From Candidatus Aenigmatarchaeota archaeon (GTDB taxonomy: Archaea > Aenigmatarchaeota > Aenigmatarchaeia > Aenigmatarchaeales > Aenigmatarchaeaceae), in NCBI GenBank assembly GCA_046760145.1, contig JBHIDO010000001.1, positions 947 to 64,946 on the forward strand: a DNA stretch of 64,000 nucleotides, given 5' to 3'. The position numbers and the translations under genes were made by a program. Under the pieces are notes generated by a model. The model worked only from the letters and a program-made list of their open reading frames with translations, had not been told where the DNA came from and did not search any database. Positions 6,223-60,855 of the stretch are shown here, in pieces; positions within the stretch are counted from its first letter, which is position 1; every line of letters begins with the position of its first letter.

Positions 6223-7212
6223 ATGAACATAGATGAAATTATTCAAAAAATAATCGAGCACACCGGACTAAATAAAGAGGAGATTGATAAAAAGATTATC
6301 GAAAAACAAAAAGAACTATCAAACTTGGTTTCTAGAGAAGGTGCAACTTATATTATTGCAAAGGAGCTTGGTTTAGAATTATTTCCTAAGGTTAAAAGGA
6401 GATTAGAAATAAAGAACATTATCCCTAAAATAAGAAATTTGAACTTATCTGCAAGAGTTATAAGGGTTTTTGGACCTAAAGGATTTACAACAAAAGAAGG
6501 TAGAAGTGGTAAAGTTGCTAGCATAATTCTAGGAGATTCTACAGGAACAATCAGATTATCTTTATGGGATGAACAAACACATCTCGCAGAAAAAATAACA
6601 CCTGGTATGGCTATTCAGATTTTTAATGGATATACAAGAGATGATAACCTAGGAGGAGTTGAAATAAGATTAAGTAAAAGTGGTGGGATAAAAATTCTAG
6701 AATCTTCTGATCTACCATCTATAGAGAAAATATCAAAACCAACAACTCAAAGAAAGAATATAATCAATTTGAAAGAAGGTGATGAAGCTGAAGTAAGGGC
6801 TGCCTTGGTTCAATTGTTTGAAACAAGAGTTTTTTATGAAATATGTCCTCATTGTGGGAAAAGACTGATAACAACAAATAATACCTTTAAATGTAATCAA
6901 CATGGAAATGTTGACCCTTCTTATGCAATTGTTTTATCTGGAGTAATTGATGATGGTACAGAAAATATTAGGGCTGTTTTCTTTAGAACAGCGGCCTTAC
7001 AATTAATAGGAATGAATATGGAAGATGCATTAAGCAAAAAAGATAGCCTCTTAGAGGATATTGATGTTTTAGGTAAAGAATTTATTTTAACTGGAACAGT
7101 AAGAAGAAATAAAATGTTTAATAGATTAGAATTCGTGGCAAACAGTGTTAGAGAAATTGATGTTACTAACGAGGCAAACAAAATCTTAAATAGTTTAGCT
7201 TCTAATGTTTAA
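6223..7212 (+). CDS. Replication protein A / ssDNA-binding protein (OB fold + Zn ribbon)
   Basis: N-terminal MNIDEIIQKI...KEEIDKKIIEKQKELSNLVSREGATYIIAKELG typical of archaeal RPA. OB-fold segment (ARVIRVFGPKGFTTKEGRSGKVASIILGDSTGTIRLSLWDE). C4 zinc ribbon CPHCGKR...CNQHG. Confidence 0.7.
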   Translation: MNIDEIIQKIIEHTGLNKEEIDKKIIEKQKELSNLVSREGATYIIAKELGLELFPKVKRRLEIKNIIPKIRNLNLSARVIRVFGPKGFTTKEGRSGKVASIILGDSTGTIRLSLWDEQTHLAEKITPGMAIQIFNGYTRDDNLGGVEIRLSKSGGIKILESSDLPSIEKISKPTTQRKNIINLKEGDEAEVRAALVQLFETRVFYEICPHCGKRLITTNNTFKCNQHGNVDPSYAIVLSGVIDDGTENIRAVFFRTAALQLIGMNMEDALSKKDSLLEDIDVLGKEFILTGTVRRNKMFNRLEFVANSVREIDVTNEANKILNSLASNV

Positions 7213-7323
7213 ATACTATTTATTTTTGTGATTTTATGAAGAATAGAAAATCAAATTATCTGAATATAATAAAGGAAAATGTGAATAATATCAACTTAAT
7301 GGTTAATTTATAAGGAGATTTTA

Positions 7324-8274
7324 ATGACCGAAATAGCTGATTTACCAGGTGTTGGAGAAAAAACAGGTGAAAAGCTGAAAAAAGCTGGCTATGTTGACAT
7401 GATGGCAATTGCAGCTGCATCACCAATGGAATTAGCAGAAGCTGCAGAAATAGGGGAAGTAACTGCTGCTAAAATAATTAATGCTGCAAGAGAAGTTTTA
7501 AATATTGGTTTTGAGAGCGCATCTCAAGTTATGGAGAGGAGATTAAAAATAGGAAGAATTACAACATGTAGTGAAAATTTGAATGAGTTATTGGGGGGTG
7601 GAGTAGAAACTGCAGCTGTTACAGAATTTCATGGAGCATTTGGTTCTAGTAAAACACAGGTAGCACATCAATTAGCTGTCAACGTCCAATTACCAAAAGA
7701 AAGGGGTGGTTTAGAAGGTGGTTGTTTATTCATAGATGCAGAAGCAACATTCAGACCAGAAAGAATAAAGCAAATGGCTGAGGCTCTTGAATTAGATGTG
7801 GAAAAGGTTTTGAATAATATCACGGTTGGTAGAGTTTATAATTCTGATCATCAAATTATATTGGTCGAAAAGGCAGGAGATATAATTAGAGAAAAAAACG
7901 TTAAATTATTAGTGATTGATTCAGTGACATCATTATTTAGAGCAGATTATTTGGGAAGAGGAACATTAGCTACTAGACAACAAAAACTAAATAGACACTT
8001 ACATACATTACAAAGACTAGGAGATGTTTATAACATTGCGGTTTATATAACAAATCAGGTTATGGCAAGACCAGATATTTTATTCGGAGATCCAACTGCT
8101 CCAATTGGTGGTCATATCATAGGACACTTCTCAACTTATAGGATTTATGTTAGAAAGTCTAAAGGCGATACAAGAATTGCAAGAATGATTGATTCTCCAA
8201 ATCTTCCAGAAGGAGAATGTGTATTTTCTATCAAACCTGAAGGAATTAGAGACCCCAATGGGAAAAAGAGATAA
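7324..8274 (+). CDS. radA: DNA repair and recombination protein RadA
   Basis: N-terminal HhH ([17 protein letters not shown]), Walker [10 protein letters not shown], RecA-fold core, 316 aa. Confidence 0.9.
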
Positions 8275-9508: not shown

Positions 9509-10594
9509 CTAACTCTCAACAAACAAAGTCTTAACCTTAGGTGTCAAAGCATACATATAGGCCTTACCACGAGCTTCTCTTTGGACAAATCCTTCTAGCA
9601 TCATCCTTTTCAAAATATTATTAACAGACCTTATTGCATGACCTTTGGATTTATATCCTTTCATTTCTAATTCTTCAACAATAGCTGTTGGTGTTAACCA
9701 GTCTCTTCTAGATAATAAGTCTATTATTTTTCTTTGCTTATAAGGTAAATCTCTTAATTTTTCTTCAGAAGGTGGTTTTGGTGAAAAAGTAACTACTGGT
9801 TCTTCAACTCTCACTTTTTTTTCAGGAATTTCCCTTAGTTCTTCTATATCAAACTCATCAATCATATCCCTTTTATTTTCTAAAGCTCTTGAAACAAGCT
9901 TATCGCATAATTTTATTACTTCTCTTGGAAATCCACCTGTTCTCTGATAAATTTTATCTAGAGCCTGGACTGTGAACGGAACAGTACCTCTTCCACCAAC
10001 ATCAGCTATTCTTTTTTGAATTAAATCTCTTACATCTTCTTGATTTAAAGATATTAGAGATATACGGGTGGTTATTCTTTGATTCAAAGTTTCAATCTCC
10101 TTTAATTTTTCTTCTAGAATAGGCATTCCAGCAATAATTAAACTAACATTATCTATTTGATCAACCAAAACTCTTAACCATTCTAAAACTTCTCTGTTAG
10201 TTTCATGAGCTTCATCTAATAGTAAAATTAATTGGTTTCCTTTTAGTTTTTTATTTACATATGCTGGTAAATTGAAAAGTGAGGGATATTTTCTAAAAAT
10301 TCTTTCCCAGAAACTTAAAGGAAAATTTTCAGTAAAAATATTTATAAAATAATCTGGTTTTTCAGGTGGTTTGCTTATGTATAAAGCATGTTGGTGGGCA
10401 TTCATTCTCAACCATTTTAAAAACGTTGTCTTACCAGAACCAGTATGACCTGTTATTAGAGCTATTTTATGCTTATTTTCTATGTGTTTTAAAGAAGCTC
10501 TTACTTGCTCTTCATAACCAGTAAATAATTTAGGATCAATTTTTAAAGTAAAGGGATTTTCTTTCCACCCCCATTTTTGGTATCCTTCTGCCAT
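9509..10594 (-). CDS. Divergent Orc1/Cdc6-like AAA+ ATPase with C-terminal winged helix
   Basis: Walker A GHTGSGKTT, Walker B LLLDEAHE. N-terminal DPKLFTGYEEQ positionally analogous to the Cdc6 P..L.HRE.Q segment. C-terminal wH (KQRKIIDLLSRRDWLTPTAIVEEL...). Adjacent to iteron array 11360-11640. Confidence 0.5.
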   Translation of the reverse strand: MAEGYQKWGWKENPFTLKIDPKLFTGYEEQVRASLKHIENKHKIALITGHTGSGKTTFLKWLRMNAHQHALYISKPPEKPDYFINIFTENFPLSFWERIFRKYPSLFNLPAYVNKKLKGNQLILLLDEAHETNREVLEWLRVLVDQIDNVSLIIAGMPILEEKLKEIETLNQRITTRISLISLNQEDVRDLIQKRIADVGGRGTVPFTVQALDKIYQRTGGFPREVIKLCDKLVSRALENKRDMIDEFDIEELREIPEKKVRVEEPVVTFSPKPPSEEKLRDLPYKQRKIIDLLSRRDWLTPTAIVEELEMKGYKSKGHAIRSVNNILKRMMLEGFVQREARGKAYMYALTPKVKTLFVES

Positions 10595-14493: not shown

Positions 14494-16632
14494 ATGTTTA
14501 CTAAAATTCGTAAGAGAGATGGGAGGATAGTTGATTTTCAACCAGAAAAAATTACAAATGCTATTTTTAAAGCAGCTGTTGCTGTTGGTGGTTCTGATAG
14601 AGAACTAGCAGAAAAATTGTCAAAAAAGGTTGTTGAAATAGCAGAAAGCAGATTTAAAGATAAAACACCAAATGTAGAAGATATACAAGATATTGTTGAA
14701 GAAGTTTTAATTAAATCTGGTCATGATAGAACTGCTAAAGCTTATATATTATATAGACAAGAAAGGAAAAATATCAGAGATGCTAAAGCTGTTTTCTATG
14801 GTGTAACAGATGATTTGAAATTATCATTAAACGCAATAAAAGTTTTAGAAAAAAGATATTTAATGAAAGATGAAAATGGTAAAGTGATAGAAACTCCAAA
14901 ACAATTATTTAGAAGAGTTGCAAAAGCAATTGCATCTGCAGACTTGTTATATGATCAGAATGCTGATGTTAAAAAAACTGAAAGAGATTTCTATAATATG
15001 ATGGCAAATTTAGAATTCTTGCCAAATTCTCCTACATTAATGAATGCTGGAACAGAATTAGGACAATTATCTGCTTGTTTTGTTTTGCCAGTAGGAGATT
15101 CAATGGAAGAGATATTTGAATCAATAAAACACACCGCACTAATTCATAAATCTGGTGGTGGAACAGGTTTTAGTTTTTCAAGATTAAGACCAAAAGGAGA
15201 TATAGTTAAGACAACTGGAGGAATTGCGTCTGGTCCTTTGACGTTTATGAGTGTTTTTAATTCTGCAACCGAAGCTGTTAAACAGGGTGGTAGAAGAAGG
15301 GGAGCAAACATGGGAATGTTAAGAGTTGATCATCCTGATATTCTTGATTTTATAATTGCAAAGGAAAAGGAAGGAATTTTCAATAATTTCAATTTATCGG
15401 TTGCATTAACAGAAGACTTTATGAAAGCTGTTGAAAATAATAAAGAATACAAATTAATTAACCCCAGAACAGAAGAGATTGTAAAGGAAATTAATGCAAA
15501 AACTGTTTTTGATATGATTGTTGCAATGGCTTGGAAAAACGGAGAACCGGGGATAGTGTTTCTTGATAGGATTAACAAAGATAATCCAACCCCCCATTTA
15601 GGAGAAATTGAATCAACAAACCCCTGCGGCGAACAACCATTATTACCATATGAATCCTGCAATTTGGGGTCAATTAATCTAGCAAAAATGGTTGAATATG
15701 GGGAAATTGACTGGTACAAATTAAGAGGAATTGTTCATAATGCGGTCCATTTTCTTGATAATGTTATTGACCTTAACAAATACCCCATTGACGAAATTGA
15801 GGAAATGACAAAAATTAACAGAAAGATTGGTTTGGGTGTTATGGGGTTTGCAGACATGCTAATTCAATTAGGAATTCCTTATAATTCTGATGAAGCTGTT
15901 GTATTAGCTGAAAAAATAATGCAATTTATTTATGTTGAAGCAAGGAAAAAGTCAGAAGAACTAGGAAAACAAAGAGGATCTTTCCCTGCATTTGAAAAAA
16001 GTAAATTAAACAACGGAAATTATGAAGCAATGAGAAACGCAACTGTTACAACAGTAGCACCCACCGGATCAATAAGTATAATAGCTGGTTGCTCTTCAGG
16101 AATAGAACCATTGTTTGCAATAAGTTTTGTTAGAAATGTGATGGAAGGAACAGATTTACTAGAAATAAATCCAATCTTTGAAGCATTAGCAAGAAAAGAA
16201 GGGTTTTATTCACATGAATTAATGAGAGAAATTGCAAAAGGGGGTAGTTTAAAAGATTTAGAAATACCAGAAATAATTAAAAAAGTTTTTGTAACTGCTC
16301 ATGATATTTCACCGGAATGGCATATAAAAATACAAGCAGCTTTTCAGAAATATACTGACAATGCTGTTTCTAAAACAATTAATTTCCCACAAAATGCAAC
16401 TCCAGATGACATTGCAAATGCCTATTGGTTAGCTTATCAACTTGGTTGTAAAGGATTAACGGTTTATAGAGATAAGAGTAGGGAAACACAAGTCCTTAAT
16501 ATAATGGAAGAAGAGAAAAGGAAAATAATAATTCCAGAAAAACAAAATCCTAAATCAGTAAAAATTCCTAAAAAAGTAAAAGTAAAAGCTGATTCAGATT
16601 ATTCTGGTGGTTGTAGTAATTGTAAGGTTTAG
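14494..16632 (+). CDS. nrdJ: Ribonucleoside-triphosphate/diphosphate reductase, adenosylcobalamin-dependent (class II, NrdJ) with N-terminal ATP-cone
   Basis: ATP-cone start ([24 protein letters not shown]). Catalytic [22 protein letters not shown]-terminal CSNCKV. 712 aa. Confidence 0.85.
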
Positions 16633-20561: not shown

Positions 20562-21710
20562 TTACTTTAAATCATCCATTGTCAATACTTTGATTCTTTG
20601 TGGTGATCTAACTTTAACACTCCTCATTCCAACCATATATTTAATTCCATTATGAGAACCAAAGTTAACCATTCTTTGGTCTATATCACCATCTATTACA
20701 ACTGCTTTTGCATCCAATCTTTTCATTGTATTAAATATTTCTTTTATAGGAACCTTACCAAGAATTTCCATTTTTTCATTTAGAAAACAAGCAGCTCTTG
20801 TTCCAATCAAATCTTCCAAGATTGTTTTGAAAATTTTTTTCTTTTCCTCATCTATGTAAATTTTTCTCTTTCTTAATTTTTTAACATCTTTAATTTGATT
20901 AACTGGTACCTTTTCTCTTAAACATTTAAAAATTTCTTTTTTTGTTAATTCTTCTACTTCTTCACCACCTAAAGCTCTTGCAACAAAATCTATTTCACAA
21001 GTTGCCAATAATTCTTTTAATATCAAGTCTCCTCCCCTATCACCATCAAGAAATGCTGTTATTGACTTTTCCTTTGATAAGTCTATAATGGTTTGTGGTA
21101 CAGAGGTTCCTTCTATCGCAATTACGTTTTTAATACCATGCTTTAAAAGGTTAATAACATCTGCTCTTCCTTCTACTACTATAATTGAGTCATATGCATC
21201 TAAATTAGGACCTGCTGGTAATCCATTATAATTTTCAATTTCAGAACCCCTTACTGCTTCTTTAATTTGTTCAGATATTTCTTGGGTGTCTGGTACACCC
21301 TCATCAAACATCCTTTCTAATAATTCTTTTGCCCTATCAACAACATATTTTCTTTTCTCAATTCTAACATCATCTATTTTTTCTGTATAAATCTTAGCAT
21401 TAGAAGGTCCGATTCTTTCAATGGTTTCAATACAAGCCGCAATTAAGGATGTTTGAGAAGCATCAAGACTAGAAGGTATGATAATTTCTCCTGATGTTTT
21501 TCCATTTTCATTTTTTATTTCTACATCTATTCTTCCTACTCTTCCTGTTCTCTGCAATTCCCTTAAATCCATATCAGGACCTAATAAACCTTCTGTTTGT
21601 CCAAACACTGCTCCTATTACATCTGGTTTTTCTACAGTTCCTTCTGCTTCAAATCTAGCGTATATTATGTATTTTGAAGTGGTTTGCGCCAATTTACTCA
21701 TTAATATCAC
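20562..21710 (-). CDS. dnaG: Archaeal DnaG-type primase (Toprim)
   Basis: N-terminal KYIIYARFEAEGTVEKPDVIGAVFGQTEGLLG is the archaeal DnaG signature. Toprim IVVEGRADVINLL...DGDRGGD. Confidence 0.85.
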   Translation of the reverse strand: MILMSKLAQTTSKYIIYARFEAEGTVEKPDVIGAVFGQTEGLLGPDMDLRELQRTGRVGRIDVEIKNENGKTSGEIIIPSSLDASQTSLIAACIETIERIGPSNAKIYTEKIDDVRIEKRKYVVDRAKELLERMFDEGVPDTQEISEQIKEAVRGSEIENYNGLPAGPNLDAYDSIIVVEGRADVINLLKHGIKNVIAIEGTSVPQTIIDLSKEKSITAFLDGDRGGDLILKELLATCEIDFVARALGGEEVEELTKKEIFKCLREKVPVNQIKDVKKLRKRKIYIDEEKKKIFKTILEDLIGTRAACFLNEKMEILGKVPIKEIFNTMKRLDAKAVVIDGDIDQRMVNFGSHNGIKYMVGMRSVKVRSPQRIKVLTMDDLK

Positions 21711-22066
21711 CTCAAGGATTTTAATTCTTCAATTGTTCGGATTCTTAATTTTGCAAATATTGTTTTTAATTTTTTTCTCGATACAATATCTACTTTACAT
21801 CCTTGAGATTGAAGAAAGAGGGTTAGTTTTTTGTTAATCTCTTTACCTTCTCTATCAAAGTCAGTAAATATCATGATTTTTTTGAATTTTTTTAATTTTA
21901 AACTTGTTTCGTATAAGCCTTTTTCAATTGTAAATATTTTGGTGAATTTAAAGGATCGTAATACTTTTTTATCACGTTTACCCTCAACAATTACTGGTCT
22001 ATCTTTTATGTTTTTAAATAATTCCAGTAACTTTTCTTCAATCTCCTTTTTAATCATAGAATACAA
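21707..22066 (-). CDS. Small stand-alone Toprim-domain protein
   Basis: VIVEGKRDKKVL (E of Toprim) and IFTDFDREGKEI (DxD). 119 aa. ATGA overlap with dnaG. Confidence 0.55.
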   Translation of the reverse strand: MYSMIKKEIEEKLLELFKNIKDRPVIVEGKRDKKVLRSFKFTKIFTIEKGLYETSLKLKKFKKIMIFTDFDREGKEINKKLTLFLQSQGCKVDIVSRKKLKTIFAKLRIRTIEELKSLR

Positions 22067-23449: not shown

Positions 23450-23459
23450 TTCCTCCCCT

Positions 23460-23778
23460 TCATTTCTTATCGAAGTTGAATTCGAAAAATAAAATATTTT
23501 TATTAATAAATTAATAACATTGTTATAAGAAATAAAGGTAAATAAGTTACTTATATTTCTTATGAAACCTTTAAAGGAAATAAAAGGGTGTGTTTTTTAT
23601 AAAAATAACAGTGTTATAAAAATAAATTTCTTTACATGTGAATATTTTACGAATAAAATTTAATTTTCCATGTGAAATAAAGGGGTTAACGTGAAGATAA
23701 TTATAAATATATTCATTCTTATTAAAAATCTTACTTCAAAAGAAATAAAGGTTTCCATAAGAAACTGAGGTATTAATA
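23460..23778. promoter_or_regulatory. Candidate oriC / origin-recognition-box region upstream of orc1/cdc6
   Basis: About 320 bp non-coding, very AT-rich. Contains CCATGTGAAATAAAGGGGTTAACGTGAAGATAA (23668-23700), which aligns to the archaeal ORB (ttCCAGTGGAAACgAAAGGGGT). Four GAAATAAAGG repeats (about 23531, 23578, 23674, 23743). Mini-ORB-like TACATGTGAATATTTTAC. Confidence 0.5.
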
Positions 23779-24969
23779 ATGAAAAAAATAGAAAAAATTT
23801 TTAATAAATTTCTTGATTCAAAACCCATATTTATAAATCGAGAAGCTCTTTCAATTTCATTTACACCAGAAGATATACCACATAGAGAAGCTCAAATAAA
23901 TGAGTTAGGAAGAATTCTGGCTCCGGCCTTAAAAAACGGAAAGCCTAGCAATGTATTCATATATGGAAGATGCGGAACAGGAAAAACTTTAATTTCTAAA
24001 TTGGTAGGATCAGAACTAGAAAAAATTAGTCAGTCTAATGGTCAAACCATTAAAGTTATTTATGTTAATTGTAAAATGAAAAAATCAGCTGATACAGAAT
24101 ATAGATTATTGGCTGGTTTAGCTAAGAAATTTGGAAAACAAGTTCCATTTACAGGATTGCCAACAGATCAAATTTATAATGCTTTTTTTGAAAGTTTGGA
24201 CAAAAGAAAACAAACTCTTATTTTAATTATAGATGAGATTGATGCTTTAGTTCAAAAAACAGGAGACGAAATTCTTTATAATCTAACAAGGATAAACCAA
24301 GATCTTAAAAACTCTAAATTATCTATTATAGGGATAACAAATAATCTGAGTTTTATTGAATCTTTAGATCCAAGGGTAAGAAGTTCCTTAGGTGAAGAAG
24401 AACTAATATTTCCACCTTATAATGCTTTACAATTACAAGATATTTTAAGGCAAAGATCTTCTATTGCTTTTGTATCTGGAGTTTTAGAAGAAGGAGTAAT
24501 TGAAAAATGTGCTGCTTTGGCTGCTCAGGAGCATGGAGATGCTAGAAGAGCTTTAGAATTGTTAAGGGTTGCTGGAGAACTAGCTGAGAGGAATGCAGAT
24601 GAAAAAATAACAACAGAGCATGTTGACCTAGCTCAGAAAAAAATTGATATAGATAGTGTTTTAGAAACAGTAAAAACCCAACCAAAACAAAGCCAGGCTG
24701 TTTTATATGCAATAATACAACTAGATAAAAAGAATATAGAAACAAGTGATGTAATTAATAAATATCAAGAAATTTGTAAGCAACATGGTTTAAGGGTATT
24801 AACACAAAGAAGAGTTTCAGATTTAATATCAGAACTATATTTATTTGGTATAATTGATTCAAAGATAATATCTAAGGGGAGATATGGGAGGACAAGAGTT
24901 ATAAATTTAAATTTAACTAATAATGTTAAGAAAAAACTAAAAAATCTTCTTAACCAAATATTCTTATGA
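23779..24969 (+). CDS. orc1: Orc1/Cdc6 replication initiator
   Basis: FTPEDIPHREAQINEL (Cdc6 N-terminal motif), Walker A GRCGTGKT, Walker B IIDEID, C-terminal winged helix. 396 aa. GAGGT RBS upstream. Confidence 0.9.
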   Translation: MKKIEKIFNKFLDSKPIFINREALSISFTPEDIPHREAQINELGRILAPALKNGKPSNVFIYGRCGTGKTLISKLVGSELEKISQSNGQTIKVIYVNCKMKKSADTEYRLLAGLAKKFGKQVPFTGLPTDQIYNAFFESLDKRKQTLILIIDEIDALVQKTGDEILYNLTRINQDLKNSKLSIIGITNNLSFIESLDPRVRSSLGEEELIFPPYNALQLQDILRQRSSIAFVSGVLEEGVIEKCAALAAQEHGDARRALELLRVAGELAERNADEKITTEHVDLAQKKIDIDSVLETVKTQPKQSQAVLYAIIQLDKKNIETSDVINKYQEICKQHGLRVLTQRRVSDLISELYLFGIIDSKIISKGRYGRTRVINLNLTNNVKKKLKNLLNQIFL

Positions 24970-25868
24970 ATTATTTAACCGAATTAATAAAACTAGGATT
25001 TTTAGTTGAACCTAATGCAGCAGAATTATTAAAAAATTTAAATCAAGGTGAATTTGAAAAACTATTAGAAAATTTGAAAAAGGAAGAGTCATTAGTTTTA
25101 TCAGAAAAATTTATAAAAAAAATATTTAAAAAAGAAATAAAAATTATAAAAACCTTTATTCCAATCAAAAAACTTTCTATTCAAGATTTTGTTAATATGT
25201 TAAATAACAGATATAATTTCTTACAAAACATTTTAGTTAATAAATTAGCAATGGAAAATATAATTTCTATTAACAAAGTTAGTTCTGGGAATACTACAAT
25301 AATAGGAATGGTAAAAATAAGACAAGAAAAAAATAACAATCTTATTGTATGGTTAGAAGATCAGACAGGTGAAATTGAAACAATTATACCCAAGATGTTG
25401 GGAGAAAAAATAAATTTAGATGATGTTATTGCAATTACAGGTAATATTTCAAACAAAAAATTATACGGAGAAAAGATAATATTTCCTGATATCCCAATAA
25501 GAAGAGTAAATTATTCTGATGATTCAATTAAAATTGCTTTTATTTTGAATGGAAAAGATTATGATGCTGATTATTTAATTTATGAAAATAAAATCAAAGA
25601 CAAATTAAATAATAAAATTCTTGAAATTACAAACCCATCAATTGTAAGCATAGGGGGAATAATAATTTTGATTGCTCATAAATTTGAACCATTTGAAATT
25701 TTAAAAAAGAGATATATTCATAAAGATAAAACTGATTTTTTAATTGATAATGTTCCAGATATTTTATTTACCGATAGAAAAATTAATACAAACTATAAAG
25801 GAGTAACTATTGTTTCAGGAAACAATTTAATAAATTTAAAGACTAGAGAAGTAATTTCTTTAGAATAG
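24966..25868 (+). CDS. PolD small-subunit (DP1)-like protein: N-terminal DP1-type helical domain + OB fold, lacking the calcineurin-like phosphodiesterase domain
   Basis: N-terminus LTELIKLGFLVEPNAAELL matches the DP1 N-terminal pattern (G[YF]L[IV].P.A..LL). OB-fold-like TTIIGMVKIRQEKNNNLIVWLEDQTGEIETIIP...DVIAITGNI. No GDxHG/GNH[DE] phosphoesterase motifs. 300 aa. Conserved cdc6-DP1 position. Confidence 0.4.
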   Translation: MNYLTELIKLGFLVEPNAAELLKNLNQGEFEKLLENLKKEESLVLSEKFIKKIFKKEIKIIKTFIPIKKLSIQDFVNMLNNRYNFLQNILVNKLAMENIISINKVSSGNTTIIGMVKIRQEKNNNLIVWLEDQTGEIETIIPKMLGEKINLDDVIAITGNISNKKLYGEKIIFPDIPIRRVNYSDDSIKIAFILNGKDYDADYLIYENKIKDKLNNKILEITNPSIVSIGGIIILIAHKFEPFEILKKRYIHKDKTDFLIDNVPDILFTDRKINTNYKGVTIVSGNNLINLKTREVISLE

Positions 25869-25905
25869 AAAACAGTTTAAATATTTAATATCTATAAAAT
25901 TACTC

Positions 25906-28542
25906 ATGGAAATACAGATTCTTGATTGTGATTATGTAATGCTACAAGGAAAGCCATTGATAAGAATATTTGGAAAAACAATGAATGGTGAATCAATTTG
26001 TGTTTTTTATGATAAGTTCTTACCATATTTTTACCTTTATGGAGATGAAGAGGAATATCCTAGAATTGCTAAGGAAATAAATAAAAGATATGATGTTAAA
26101 ATTGAGGTTGTTAAAAGAATTCTTCCAATTGGATATCAAAAACCAGTAAATATATTAAAAATAATTGGCAAAGATCCAGGTAAAACTCCAGAAATTAGAG
26201 AATTTGTAAGAAAATTTGGAACCCCTTATGAAGCAGATATTCTTTTTAAATATAGATTCATGGCAGATTTTGATTTGAAAGGAATGGGATGGATTAATGT
26301 TAAAGGAAAATTTAGAAAAACAAATACAGTTAAATGCAGGGCTTTGGCTGCAGATAATATAAAACCAATAGAGATTTTGAAAAATGCTCCATTAAAATAT
26401 TTAGCAATAGATTTAGAATGTTTAGGAGGAGAAGACAGATTAGTAACACCTGAGAAGGATTCAATTATTATAGTAAGTTTGGCATTTTATCCTACATACA
26501 AGGGAAAAAACCAAATGGTTTTGCTAGCAAAACCAATACAAACAGGAAAAGATGTTATTGGTCATAGTGATGAAGCGGATATGTTAAAAAACCTTTTGGA
26601 AATAATAAAAGATTTTGATCCTGATATTATAACTGGTTATAACATAAATAATTTTGATTTACCATTTCTAATAAAAAGATTAGAAATATTAAAATTACCA
26701 AGAGATTTAGGAAGGTCAGAAAAAAATGCTTTTTGTAGAAAGTTAATTTATTCACACATTCCTACTGTTTCTGGAAGAGTTATTGTTGATTCTTTTGAAA
26801 TTTTAAAAAGAGATCCTTGGGTGAAATTTAAAAGATATGATTTAGGCACGGTAGCAAGAGAATTATTAGATATAGAAAAGTTGGAAATGGGTGGACCACG
26901 CGAAATAAGAGAACTTTGGAATGGAAAAGATATGAAAAAACTTGTCGATTATGCAAGAAGAGATGCTGAACTTGCTTTGAAATTAATTATTGAAAAAAGA
27001 ATTTTAGACAAATTTTTCGAGTTATCTAAAATATCAGGTCTATTATTGCAAGAAAGTTTAGGAGGCCAGTCACAAAGACATGAATTCAAATTACTAAGAG
27101 AGTTTGGAAAAAGAAAATTTATTATGCCTTGTAAACCAGGACAAAACACATTAGAAAAAAGAATAAAAGAAAGAACAAATTTAGGATTGAAAGGTGCTTT
27201 AGTTTTAGAACCAGAAGTTGGTTTGTATAATAATATTATTGTTTTAGATTTTACAAGCCTATATCCTTCTTTAATAAGAGCATTTAACATATGCCCAACC
27301 ACATTTCTTGTAAATGGTGAAGAAATTGATCATATAGAATCACCTTATGGAACAAAGTTTGTTAAACCAAGTATTAGAAAAGGCATATTACCAAAAATTC
27401 TTGATGAATTAATAAACACAAGGGCTGATGTAAGAAAACAGGTTAAATTAACCGAAGATAAAGAGGAGAAAAGAACTTTAAATGCAAAACAACTTGCTTT
27501 GAAGGATATGGCAAATTCTCTTTATGGATATACTGGTTACATAAGATCAAGACTTTATGTTATTCAAATTGCAAATACAATTACTGCTTTTGGTAGAGAT
27601 ACAATAAGAAAAACTAAAAAACTAATCGAGGAAAACTTTCCTGTAAAGGTTTTGTATGCTGATACAGATTCTGTTTTTATAAAATCTGATGCAAAAACTT
27701 TAGAAGAAGCTGAAAAATTAGGAAAAGAAATTTCACAATTTATAACAAATAAATTAAAAGGTTTGGATCTAAAATTTGAAAAAATATTCAAAACATTTTT
27801 GATTTTATCAAAGAAAAGATATGCGGGTTGGGCATTTGAAAGAGAAAAAGATGGATGGAAAGATAGTTTGGATATGAAAGGAATTGAGACTATAAGAAGA
27901 GACTGGTGCGAATTAACATCTGAGACGATGTTAAAGGTTTTAAAAATTGTTTTGAAAGAACAAAACATTACAAAAGCATGTAAATATGTTAGAAGTGTTA
28001 TAGAAGATTTATCTAAAAATAAAGTCCCATTAGAAAAGTTAGCTGTTGTAAAAGGAATTACAAAATCTTTGGATTCTTATGATGGAATTCAGCCACATGT
28101 TGAATTGGCTAAAAAAATTCTAAAAAGAGACCCTACCAGAGGGTCAATGGTTGGTGAAAGATTAGGGTATGTGATAATAAAAGGAAATCAGTTATTGTCA
28201 AAAAGAGCAGAAGACCCAAATTATGTTAAGGAAAAAGGATTGAAAATTGATTCTCAATATTATATTCAAAATCAATTGTTACCTCCTTTAGAAAGAATAT
28301 TTGAGGTTTGTGGAGTAACATCTTCTGAATTATTAGAAGGTGTTAGACAATTAAGTTTAATGGACTCTTTCAAAGTAAAATCACCAGAAGAAACCATTTT
28401 AAAAGAATTTGATTCTGTTACATGTAAGGCTTGTCATTGGACTTTCAGAAGACCTCCGTTAAAGGGTTCTTGTCCACGTTGTGATTCTAAATTGTATTTT
28501 TCTGGAAATGGTTCAATTGGAAAAAGTGTTGAATTTAACTAA
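25906..28542 (+). CDS. polB: Family-B DNA polymerase (PolB) with 3'-5' exonuclease domain and C-terminal Zn finger
   Basis: Exo I LAIDLEC, Exo II YNINNFDLPFL, Exo III YARRDAELA. Pol motif A DFTSLYPSLI, motif B KQLALKDMANSLYGYTGY, motif C YADTDSVF. C-terminal CKACHW...CPRCDS. Confidence 0.95.
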   Translation: MEIQILDCDYVMLQGKPLIRIFGKTMNGESICVFYDKFLPYFYLYGDEEEYPRIAKEINKRYDVKIEVVKRILPIGYQKPVNILKIIGKDPGKTPEIREFVRKFGTPYEADILFKYRFMADFDLKGMGWINVKGKFRKTNTVKCRALAADNIKPIEILKNAPLKYLAIDLECLGGEDRLVTPEKDSIIIVSLAFYPTYKGKNQMVLLAKPIQTGKDVIGHSDEADMLKNLLEIIKDFDPDIITGYNINNFDLPFLIKRLEILKLPRDLGRSEKNAFCRKLIYSHIPTVSGRVIVDSFEILKRDPWVKFKRYDLGTVARELLDIEKLEMGGPREIRELWNGKDMKKLVDYARRDAELALKLIIEKRILDKFFELSKISGLLLQESLGGQSQRHEFKLLREFGKRKFIMPCKPGQNTLEKRIKERTNLGLKGALVLEPEVGLYNNIIVLDFTSLYPSLIRAFNICPTTFLVNGEEIDHIESPYGTKFVKPSIRKGILPKILDELINTRADVRKQVKLTEDKEEKRTLNAKQLALKDMANSLYGYTGYIRSRLYVIQIANTITAFGRDTIRKTKKLIEENFPVKVLYADTDSVFIKSDAKTLEEAEKLGKEISQFITNKLKGLDLKFEKIFKTFLILSKKRYAGWAFEREKDGWKDSLDMKGIETIRRDWCELTSETMLKVLKIVLKEQNITKACKYVRSVIEDLSKNKVPLEKLAVVKGITKSLDSYDGIQPHVELAKKILKRDPTRGSMVGERLGYVIIKGNQLLSKRAEDPNYVKEKGLKIDSQYYIQNQLLPPLERIFEVCGVTSSELLEGVRQLSLMDSFKVKSPEETILKEFDSVTCKACHWTFRRPPLKGSCPRCDSKLYFSGNGSIGKSVEFN

Positions 28543-58845: not shown

Positions 58846-60855
58846 TCATCTCTTCTTAGTCTTCCAATAACCAGCCGGTTTTCTACTTAAATCGTCTTCT
58901 GTTAAATTTGGAAAAGCTTCCTTCAGAGCCTTGAAGGTACTAGAATCATATGTATTTTGAAATAATCCAGACAACCCATGTTCTTCAAATGCATCAGCTG
59001 TAACATTTTTTATACCATCAACTTCCTCTTTTAACCATTTGATAGCTTCAACCCTAATTTCTTTTTTGTTAAAGAAATTTTTTGGTAATTGTTTTAATGC
59101 TAACCACGGTGTTTCAGCCAATTCAGGATCGTAATATTCAGAATTGGGGTCTGTGAAACCAGCTTCGATAAAGGCAAGATATGGAGAATCACCATAATAC
59201 CAATTAATAAGAGCTCCAAGCTTGTTTTTAGCTAGATAATCAAGAGTCGGATATCTCTTTCCAGTTTCACTCCTAAATTCTTCTACAGCAGCCTGTATTA
59301 GATAGGCTCTATGATTTTTATTTTGTAAGAATTTATCTGGAAATTTCTTCCTTTCACCACGTCTCCTCTCATACCATAGTTGGATGGTCTCTTCTTTGGA
59401 GATATTTAAAAATCTTTTTCTCCTTTCTTCTTTAATTTGTTTTAAACGAAGCCTTTCTTCAAGTCTTTTACTCATAACAGATGGCATATCAGGAAAGTAT
59501 TTTTTTCTAAATTTTTCTAATCCACCATGGTAATGATAAATTGCAACTGAAACAGAACTATTTATTCTGCTTAGCTGAGATGCCGAAGGAAAATGTCCAA
59601 GCTTTTTTATAACTTTTTCTAATTCTTTTTTAACATTATTTTCATCTTTCCAAAAACCTTTTGGTTTTTCTGTTGCAAATCCCCTTTTCATTTTATACTC
59701 TGTCAGACTACCATAAATTGCTGTAATTCCTTGTAATAAACCTGATCTTCCACTATAACTAATTTCATATTGAGTTGGAACATGACCCAAAAGGTCTATT
59801 AATTTGTCAAATTCCATATCAATATTTTTTTTATCTCTCCAATAGTGTCTAGGAACCCTTTTCATGTCTGTAGGTTTTTTTACTAAACCAGCTTCTTTTA
59901 AAGCTGAATAAGCAGAACCATTATAGATATTTGTTATTAAAGTCCCAAGATTTTGTTCTATTAAATCCTCACTTGTTATTTCTTCAACAGGTTTTCCAAT
60001 TGCTTCTACTGCTGATTTAATATGCTCAATTCTACATTCTTTATCTTCCCAATAATACCAAGGTTTTTTGCCTTCTAAATTTTTACTCATTTTATAGTTA
60101 GCTAAACCGCCATGGAAATTTTGTATATCATCTAATAAACCAAGTTTGCCATGTTTTTGAAAATCCGAATAGACAGGAACTCTACCAAGTTTTTCCATAA
60201 ATTTATCAAATTCTCTATCAACCTTTTCTCTATCTTTCCAATAAGCAAATGGATGCTGTTTTCTATCTTCCATTTGTAATGTTGGATATGCTTCTCTTAT
60301 TAATTCAAAAATTATTTTATCTGAGTTTTTTACAACTGCAACAAACCCATTGTTGTAATAGTCATCTTGTGTTAATTCTGCAGGAGATTTTTTAAGTTTT
60401 ATTTCTGCTAACCATTTTGTTGCTCTTATTCTATTCTCTTTATTAGACCAGAATCTTTGTGGTAGTTTTCTTATAACAACCCATGGTGTTTCTGCAAATT
60501 CTTGATTATAATACTCTGATTTAGGATCTGCCAAATCACACAATTTGAAAATCTCATAAGGAGAACCATTATTGTATGTTAGTAAACTTTTAAGCTTATT
60601 TTCTTTGAAATCTTTATTTGTCGGGAAGTTTTCAGGATTTTCTTTTTGATATTCATCTAAAAAGGCTCGACCAACATATTGCTGATGTCTTACATTACTC
60701 CAAAAATAGTTTGGAAATCTTTCTCTAATACCAGCTCTAACTTCATGCCAAATTTGTATAGCTTCCTCTTCAGATACTTCAAAATATTTTTTTCTTCTAT
60801 ATTCTTTAATTTCTTTCAATTTCCTTTTATCTGCTTTTGTTAACCCCTTTGGCAT
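58846..60855 (-). CDS. Internally repeated hypothetical protein (two about 150-aa terminal repeats flanking four about 75-aa YW[KRE]D[KR]EN repeats)
   Basis: Residues about 10-160 and about 470-620 are clear duplicates (e.g. EYYNQEFAETPWVVIRKLPQRFWSNKENRIRATKWL vs EYYDPELAETPWLALKQLPKNFFNKKEIRVEAIKWL). Middle has 4 units like KPWYYWEDKECRIEHIKSAVEAIGKPV. Confidence 0.5.
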   Translation of the reverse strand: MPKGLTKADKRKLKEIKEYRRKKYFEVSEEEAIQIWHEVRAGIRERFPNYFWSNVRHQQYVGRAFLDEYQKENPENFPTNKDFKENKLKSLLTYNNGSPYEIFKLCDLADPKSEYYNQEFAETPWVVIRKLPQRFWSNKENRIRATKWLAEIKLKKSPAELTQDDYYNNGFVAVVKNSDKIIFELIREAYPTLQMEDRKQHPFAYWKDREKVDREFDKFMEKLGRVPVYSDFQKHGKLGLLDDIQNFHGGLANYKMSKNLEGKKPWYYWEDKECRIEHIKSAVEAIGKPVEEITSEDLIEQNLGTLITNIYNGSAYSALKEAGLVKKPTDMKRVPRHYWRDKKNIDMEFDKLIDLLGHVPTQYEISYSGRSGLLQGITAIYGSLTEYKMKRGFATEKPKGFWKDENNVKKELEKVIKKLGHFPSASQLSRINSSVSVAIYHYHGGLEKFRKKYFPDMPSVMSKRLEERLRLKQIKEERRKRFLNISKEETIQLWYERRRGERKKFPDKFLQNKNHRAYLIQAAVEEFRSETGKRYPTLDYLAKNKLGALINWYYGDSPYLAFIEAGFTDPNSEYYDPELAETPWLALKQLPKNFFNKKEIRVEAIKWLKEEVDGIKNVTADAFEEHGLSGLFQNTYDSSTFKALKEAFPNLTEDDLSRKPAGYWKTKKR

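Follow-up and report, generated by a model that had tools for sequence, protein, structure and literature searches.

A reduced DP1 homolog with an apparently inactive phosphodiesterase core lies beside a B-family DNA polymerase in Aenigmatarchaeota

Introduction

What is left for DP1, the small subunit of the archaeal polymerase PolD, to do when its gene is followed by a B-family DNA polymerase (PolB) instead of DP2? This question is raised by a 64-kb stretch of DNA from a Candidatus Aenigmatarchaeota archaeon (contig JBHIDO010000001.1; AT-rich, ~28% GC), which was analysed as a whole and is called the window here. An open reading frame (ORF) of 300 amino acids (aa) with an ATG start (24966..25868, + strand) lies between the orc1/cdc6 initiator gene and a PolB gene, at the place where DP1 would be expected. 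An earlier note on this DNA described the ORF as a truncated DP1-like gene lacking the phosphodiesterase (PDE) domain, and left a choice between a DP1 remnant reused as an accessory factor of PolB or the replisome and a decaying polD locus. From the evidence given below we consider it very probable that this ORF encodes a nuclease-dead DP1 in miniature, which acts as a non-catalytic B-subunit analog of the adjacent PolB, and that this pair replaces PolD as the replicase of Aenigmatarchaeota.

Results

Identity of the 300-aa protein

The ORF is real, with LGFLVEPNAAELL starting at residue 10, IIGMVKIRQ at residue 112 and WLEDQTGEIETII at residue 129 of its product, and an identical protein is annotated in a Candidatus Aenigmatarchaeota metagenome-assembled genome. 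The DP1-like identity proposed in the earlier note was borne out by several comparisons. NF003118, the NCBIfam model of DP1, matches residues 4-193 with E=4.6e-27, at a score of 95.1 bits that is far under the equivalog cut-off of 445, and P. abyssi DP1 structures were matched by phmmer over residues 70-182 (E=4.6e-9). When a 72-member family alignment was used as a profile, the DP1 proteins of T. kodakarensis (E=1.5e-29) and P. abyssi (E=1.5e-26) were both recovered, and the OB region of this profile also matched RPA2 (6i52_B, E=5e-5). Two profiles had been named in the earlier note as checks on this identity, and they gave different outcomes: the isolated DP1 N-terminal domain (2kxe_A) was matched by the family profile at E=0.0067, and PF04042 gave no match to the 300-aa protein at E<=1, nor did any other Pfam PDE family.

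An AlphaFold2 model built on the family alignment is compact and confident (pLDDT 91.4, pTM 0.83). In a Foldseek search of the PDB with the whole model, DP1 chains were the best matches (E=2e-16, TMq 0.61-0.63); next came human and yeast B-subunits, those of Pol delta (p50), epsilon, alpha and zeta (E=4e-10 to ~1e-6). The model and the alignments divide the protein as follows.

24966..25145, + strand: residues 1-60, small helical DP1N-like domain (NF003118 from residue 4; profile match to 2kxe_A)
25146..25511, + strand: residues 61-182, long helix and OB fold (phmmer match to P. abyssi DP1; PF01336)
25512..25868, + strand: residues 183-300 and stop codon, apparent vestige of a dead PDE core (colinear profile alignment; Foldseek match of the whole model)

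The first of these domains is predicted to contain helices at residues 3-9, 16-22, 27-40 and 47-53, and the indications that it is a DP1N domain are weak but consistent. In the OB region E131, D132 and T134 are invariant in the family and D152 and D153 nearly so; PF01336 is matched by 60 of the 72 members. Invariant residues occur across all three domains. Collectively the sequence and model comparisons indicate that the protein is a true DP1 homolog in its N-terminal domain, OB fold and reduced PDE core.

The neighbouring polymerase and its C-terminal zinc module

The PolB gene (25906..28542, + strand) begins 37 nucleotides (nt) past the DP1-like gene, and its product consists of two parts.

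25906..28305, + strand: residues 1-800, PolB catalytic body (PF03104, E=2.8e-35; PF00136, E=2e-111)
28306..28542, + strand: residues 801-878, C-terminal tail with a four-cysteine (Cys4) module, a candidate docking module resembling Zn-III of DP2

All of the catalytic motifs of PolB are intact, namely ExoI (D169/E171), ExoII (NxxxFD), ExoIII (Y349/D353) and polymerase motifs A, B and C (YADTDS), and these exonuclease and polymerase motifs are likewise preserved in eight related loci. To judge from these residues both the 3'-5' exonuclease and the polymerase domain look active. The closest solved relative of the PolB body is human Pol delta's catalytic subunit (E=3e-110). One related locus (L012, 5940-9860) has a PolB homolog with an in-frame insert of ~1.2 kb exactly at motif C (window-equivalent residues ~581-587, YADTDS); the insert resembles an intein located at the classic polB-c site.

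The feature that we regard as the key support for a partnership between the two proteins was overlooked in the earlier note, and it lies in the last 40 residues of PolB. Here a Cys4 module (C840-x2-C843-x12-C856-x2-C859, nt 28423-28482) contains the sequence TFRRPPL. The tail is matched by NF003103, the model of the DP2 C-terminal region (E=3.4e-4), and by phmmer against the PDB the only matches at E<0.01 are to Zn-III of DP2 (6knb_B, 6hms_B and 6t8h_B), in an alignment that pairs CKACHWTFRRPPLKGSCPRC of PolB with CVKCNTKFRRPPLNGKCPVC of DP2. The Cys4 module is kept in all complete partner PolBs. Close relatives share the RRxP loop with the window PolB, and distant ones vary in it, as L004 does (MRRVP). 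Helices of the DP2 C-terminal domain (CTD) that contact the PDE loops have no counterpart in the short PolB tail. In PolD the KxRRxP loop of Zn-III sits in an acidic groove at the interface of the DP1 OB and PDE domains (Raia et al. 2019, PMC6355029), and earlier work cited there found nanomolar binding of DP1 by a 20-aa peptide of Zn-III.

Gene order at a likely origin

The genes upstream of PolB and the intergenic features around them are listed here.

23450..23778, no strand assigned: putative replication origin, AT-rich and intergenic, with repeats of the form GAAATAAAGG[G/T] resembling origin recognition boxes (ORB) in both orientations, and TTTCCATGTGAAATAAAGGGGT at 23665-23686
23779..24969, + strand: orc1/cdc6 initiator gene (NF001625, E=1.6e-155; Cdc6_lid and Cdc6_C Pfam domains)
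25876..25883, + strand: TATA-box-like TTTAAATA, 22 nt upstream of the PolB ATG in the 37-nt spacer 25869-25905

The origin-like region is 329 nt long and directly precedes cdc6. All three exact matches to GAAATAAAGG in the window fall within it, as do 5 of the 19 window matches when up to one mismatch is allowed, and of 11 related loci 10 show a 4-55x enrichment of the ORB-like motif upstream of cdc6. This pattern makes it likely that the region is a replication origin. The stop codon of cdc6 and the start codon of the DP1-like gene share 4 nt (ATGA), coupling these two genes, whereas the TATA-like element precedes PolB. From the position of TTTAAATA and general archaeal promoter geometry, PolB may be transcribed from a promoter of its own as a leaderless mRNA. 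DP2 was not found in the 64-kb window, which has no ORF longer than 900 aa.

Related genome loci, found by a profile scan with a narrower alignment than the 72-member one, show that this order is not peculiar to the window. The order cdc6, DP1-like gene, PolB occurs in every related locus with enough flanking sequence (L001, L004-L009, L011 and L012), and in the distant locus L002 PolB directly follows the DP1-like gene. All of the named genome loci belong to Aenigmatarchaeota. The DP1-like gene and PolB are thus linked yet not always contiguous, because the inserts between them vary among relatives: L001 has two small ORFs there (6944-7566), and the inserts of L005-L009 measure 0.5-2.7 kb. 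These findings agree with the earlier placement of the gene between cdc6 and PolB, with PolB in lieu of DP2. In the P. abyssi replication island the order is cdc6, DP1, DP2 (PMC2643942), and PolB therefore holds the position of DP2.

The same arrangement could be taken to mean that the protein is no stable PolB subunit and serves chiefly beside Cdc6 at the origin, whether in initiation, in recruitment or as an OB-fold binder of single-stranded DNA, and that the link to PolB reflects a shared replication island only. We regard this as improbable, even though it would account for the ATGA overlap, for the adjacency to cdc6 in nearly all loci at PolB distances of 37 nt to 2.7 kb, for the TATA-like element before PolB and for the RPA2 match of the OB profile, and even though the ancient euryarchaeal cdc6-DP1 linkage has prompted the suggestion that DP1 is the link by which Cdc6 recruits the polymerase (PMC2643942). 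A contact with Cdc6 is compatible with the protein being a polymerase subunit, as the cdc6-linked DP1 of euryarchaea is still a subunit of PolD. Moreover, the DP2 Zn-III-like module on PolB would be without an obvious role absent a DP1-like partner, and binding of DP1 to the PolB CTD in Aenigmatarchaeota has been reported from yeast two-hybrid assays (PMC12680538).

A reduced and apparently dead phosphodiesterase

The five Mre11-like metal-binding motifs on which the 3'-5' exonuclease activity of DP1 is based (DxH, GDxxD, GNH[D/E], H and GHxH) are all missing from the 300-aa protein. Pattern searches for D.H, GD..D, GD.H, GNH and GH.H in its sequence gave no hits, which agrees with the earlier observation that GDxHG and GNH[DE] are absent. 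The family profile nevertheless runs colinearly through the PDE of DP1, with deletions of ~30, 64, 20 and 11 aa (~125 aa in sum), and the segments at and around the motifs compare as follows.

Motif I: family vkvaflsek, DP1 VYAILLSDIHVGS; strand retained, DxH gone
Motif II: family adyiilkkkiedk, DP1 KYIIIGGDVVDG; motif II gone
Motif III: family gap of ~64 aa, DP1 segment with GNHD; deleted
Motif IV: family ieitNPslvkiegvkiL, DP1 IISNPAVIRLHGRDFLVAHG; strand retained
Adjoining segment: family LevLkkRy, DP1 ELLKLRHIAP; retained
Motif V: family flidevPDivft, DP1 LVIESVPDLFQAGHVH; GHxH gone

In this alignment the DP1 strands bearing motifs I, II, IV and V remain, and all of the metal ligands are gone.

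As the E-value of the full-length profile alignment could be explained by the OB fold alone, the C-terminus was examined separately. A profile made from the C-termini of longer family members (152-202 aa) matches the DP1 PDE on its own (E=1.2e-8), and hhalign relates this profile to one made from the C-termini of the short forms with 99.5% probability (E=1.7e-22, window residues ~217-299). PF04042 is matched by 3 of the 72 family members, all of them longer forms. The colinear alignment, the fold match and the transitive link via longer relatives together lead us to assign residues ~183-300 (~115 aa) to a PDE remnant, which on sequence and model evidence is a skeletonised and catalytically dead core shrunk by internal deletions. 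The domain is accordingly not cut off, as the word "truncated" had implied, and of the claim that the PDE is lacking the part that concerns the catalytic motifs stands, while the vestigial core remains. Longer relatives such as P0108 retain degenerate motif shapes (VGDLGD, PGEKD), which suggests that the PDE was reduced stepwise, via intermediates of 350-400 aa, to the 300-aa forms.

One could suppose that nuclease activity or some other catalysis has been retained through a rebuilt active site, since in the alignment His238 falls on the histidine of DP1 motif IV (AHK vs AHG) and the Asp residues D152, D153 and D265 are conserved. This is very improbable, given that the protein has two His residues in all (238 and 252), neither of which is conserved in the family, that the ligands of motifs I, II and V are gone along with the motif III segment, and that PolB has a full proofreading site of its own.

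In the three most distant loci cdc6 or the DP1-like gene has as its neighbour a standalone gene for a calcineurin-like phosphoesterase (Metallophos), whose product measures 226-238 aa and whose motifs look intact (GDxHG-like, GNHD/GNFD).

L002, 3542-4222: Metallophos gene
L003, 3760-4440, - strand: Metallophos gene
L004, 496-1212: Metallophos gene

We considered whether this gene might be the split-off PDE; the window holds no homolog of it.

Conservation and selection

Homologs of the DP1-like protein number 191 at E<=1e-3, of which ~105 are 295-310 aa long with 40-58% identity. An exhaustive profile search returned 1432 cluster representatives (417 at E<=1e-30), and the best 150 of these 1432 are without exception short, with lengths of mostly 282-404 aa. 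In the closest of the related loci the ratio of non-synonymous to synonymous change (dN/dS) is 0.09-0.13 for the DP1-like gene, compared with 0.06-0.09 for cdc6 and 0.08-0.11 for PolB. The DP1-like gene is under purifying selection. Its dN is 2-3x that of cdc6 or PolB, and in the related loci identity to the window genes is 39-51% for the DP1-like protein, 70-76% for Cdc6 and 58-67% for PolB.

That the ORF is a non-functional DP1 remnant of a decaying polD locus, heading for loss, is hardly tenable: over half of the PDE and all catalytic motifs are indeed gone, the NF003118 score is far under its cut-off and non-synonymous change is fast, but the low dN/dS rejects pseudogene status, ~105 homologs persist as intact ORFs of nearly the same length among 1432 cluster representatives, the predicted fold is confident and compact, invariant residues are spread over three domains, synteny is kept, and DP2 remnants have no room in the window because the spacer to PolB is 37 nt.

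A viral or mobile origin was rejected as well. DP1-like relatives were absent from IMG/VR and from 50,697 phage records, the best phage matches of PolB are ~23% identical, and the flanking genes are housekeeping genes. Two Toprim genes, one for a DnaG-like protein of 382 aa and the other a small ORF of 119 aa, lie elsewhere in the window at 20562-22066 (- strand), ~2 kb from the origin-like region, and an ATP-cone ribonucleotide reductase is encoded at 14494-16632; L001 has kept these replication-related neighbours as well. Further genes encode an AAA_22/AAA_14 ATPase of 361 aa (9509-10594, - strand) and a 669-aa protein (58846-60855, - strand) whose single match is a weak HNH_repeat, a repeat associated with homing endonucleases. 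No tRNA genes were found in the window.

Discussion

Relation to published systems

The pair described here is an already known system that has been correctly rediscovered. Kazlauskas et al. 2020 (PMC7544198) defined a set of inactivated DP1 proteins, named 'Aenigma_GB_GCA_002789635-like', together with B6-aenigma1 PolBs, which carry one C-terminal Zn motif closest to ZnF-III of DP2. According to the same authors most Aenigmarchaeota are without DP2, and they propose that PolB replaced it. A 2025 paper (PMC12680538) added AlphaFold3 predictions to the two-hybrid assays, in which DP1 binds PolB-DP2CTD in Aenigmatarchaeota. The window pair shares with this system the phylum, a motif-less DP1 homolog, a Pol-delta-like PolB with a single DP2 ZnF-III-like Zn motif and, within 64 kb, the lack of DP2; the Delta-like assignment of PolB is drawn from its best matches and from the description in PMC7544198. 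As no substantive difference was found, we count the window pair as a member.

What the present analysis contributes are two small additions, the conserved order origin-cdc6-DP1-PolB and the pattern of PDE deletions. By term searches, the main text of PMC7544198 and PMC12680538 does not mention the gene neighbourhood, and the ATGA coupling, the internal PDE deletions and the 350-400-aa intermediates with degenerate motifs were likewise not found there. In other archaea, Thermococcales, Halobacteriales and Methanosarcinales share a conserved cdc6-DP1 linkage beside oriC (Berthon et al. 2008, PMC2643942).

With canonical DP1 (P. abyssi, PDB 5IHE/6HMF/6T8H) the window protein shares the N-terminal helices, the OB fold, what appear to be the core PDE strands, and adjacency to cdc6 and the likely origin. 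Canonical DP1 is, in contrast, ~480-650 aa long and has the five metal motifs, the PDE loops and motif III, which the window protein has lost in its ~125 aa of deletions, and its partner is DP2, whereas the window neighbour and the published partner in this phylum is a B-family polymerase. The eukaryotic B-subunits (human p50, 6TNY_B; Pol epsilon p59, 5VBN; Pol alpha p70, 4Y97) resemble the window protein in combining an OB fold with an inactivated PDE and in having a B-family catalytic partner that carries a C-terminal, Cys-rich Zn module. Unlike these PF04042 proteins, the window protein has a much smaller PDE remnant, and it is nearer to archaeal DP1 than to any eukaryotic B-subunit in both sequence and fold; its partner has one Zn motif and no helical bundle in the CTD, where eukaryotes have two metal sites and helices. 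A further parallel is PolB3-DP2CTD of the Asgard lineage Baldrarchaeia (PMC12680538), where DP2 is absent, DP1 is kept and PolB is fused to a DP2-derived CTD that binds DP1. The Baldrarchaeial CTD is full-length and resembles the DP2 and eukaryotic CTDs, whereas that of Aenigmatarchaeota is short and 'degenerate', a description that fits the ~40-aa module of the window.

A proposed two-subunit replicase

The homology to DP1, the loss of its motifs, the linkage to PolB, the Zn-III match and the purifying selection support the earlier suggestion that a DP1 derivative with a dead PDE has been reused as an accessory to PolB or the replisome. We propose a two-subunit, eukaryote-like replicase in which PolB would carry out both polymerisation and proofreading. 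The Zn module of PolB would dock where the OB fold and the PDE remnant form a groove, in the manner of DP2 Zn-III on DP1 and of the eukaryotic CysB/Zn-2 module on B-subunits, a step that we infer by analogy and that the published two-hybrid result for the phylum supports. The DP1N-like domain may then tether the polymerase to GINS/CMG, to other fork factors or to Cdc6 at the origin; in Thermococcus DP1N binds Gins51C (PMC9023282). Because PolB has its own proofreading activity by prediction, the nuclease of DP1 would no longer have been needed. The loops through which the PDE contacts the helices of the DP2 CTD appear to be lost, and the PolB tail is without those helices too, a pairing that may reflect co-reduction of the two surfaces.

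Several observations weigh against this proposal. The match of the PolB tail to DP2 is short (34 aa) and has an E-value of ~3e-3, and the loop of the distant locus L002 has other residues in place of RR (FARTP). The CTD of Aenigmatarchaeota has been called degenerate, with a different predicted structure (PMC12680538). The profile of short-form C-termini found no DP1 match in the PDB, so that the short C-terminus alone is unrecognisable as a PDE by sequence. Finally, depending on the locus, PolB lies anywhere from 37 nt to ~2.7 kb away from the DP1-like gene, and the translational coupling of the DP1-like gene is to cdc6 and not to PolB.

The order origin-cdc6-DP1-like-PolB mirrors origin-cdc6-DP1-DP2 of Pyrococcus, and this suggests a tentative history for the dead-DP1/PolB pair. 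The PolB body may have replaced the DP2 body in place in an ancestral polD operon, leaving only the 3' end that encodes Zn-III, after which the PDE loops and the CTD helices would have been lost together. We hold this possible yet doubtful. If true, the pair would have the smallest natural A-subunit/B-subunit interface, made of the Zn module and the OB/PDE groove only, and it would be a living model of the DP2-to-PolB swap that has been proposed for the origin of eukaryotic replicases.

Significance

Eukaryotic replicative polymerases consist of a B-family catalytic subunit and a dead, DP1-derived B-subunit that are joined by a C-terminal zinc module. The Aenigmatarchaeota pair very probably represents the same chimeric architecture in an archaeon, and because this architecture is shared the pair figures in published accounts of how Pol alpha, delta and epsilon may have arisen. 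The window does not add a new kind of system; it provides a clean and complete example beside a likely origin, and the two proteins may serve as a minimal pair for structural and biochemical work on the subunit interface.

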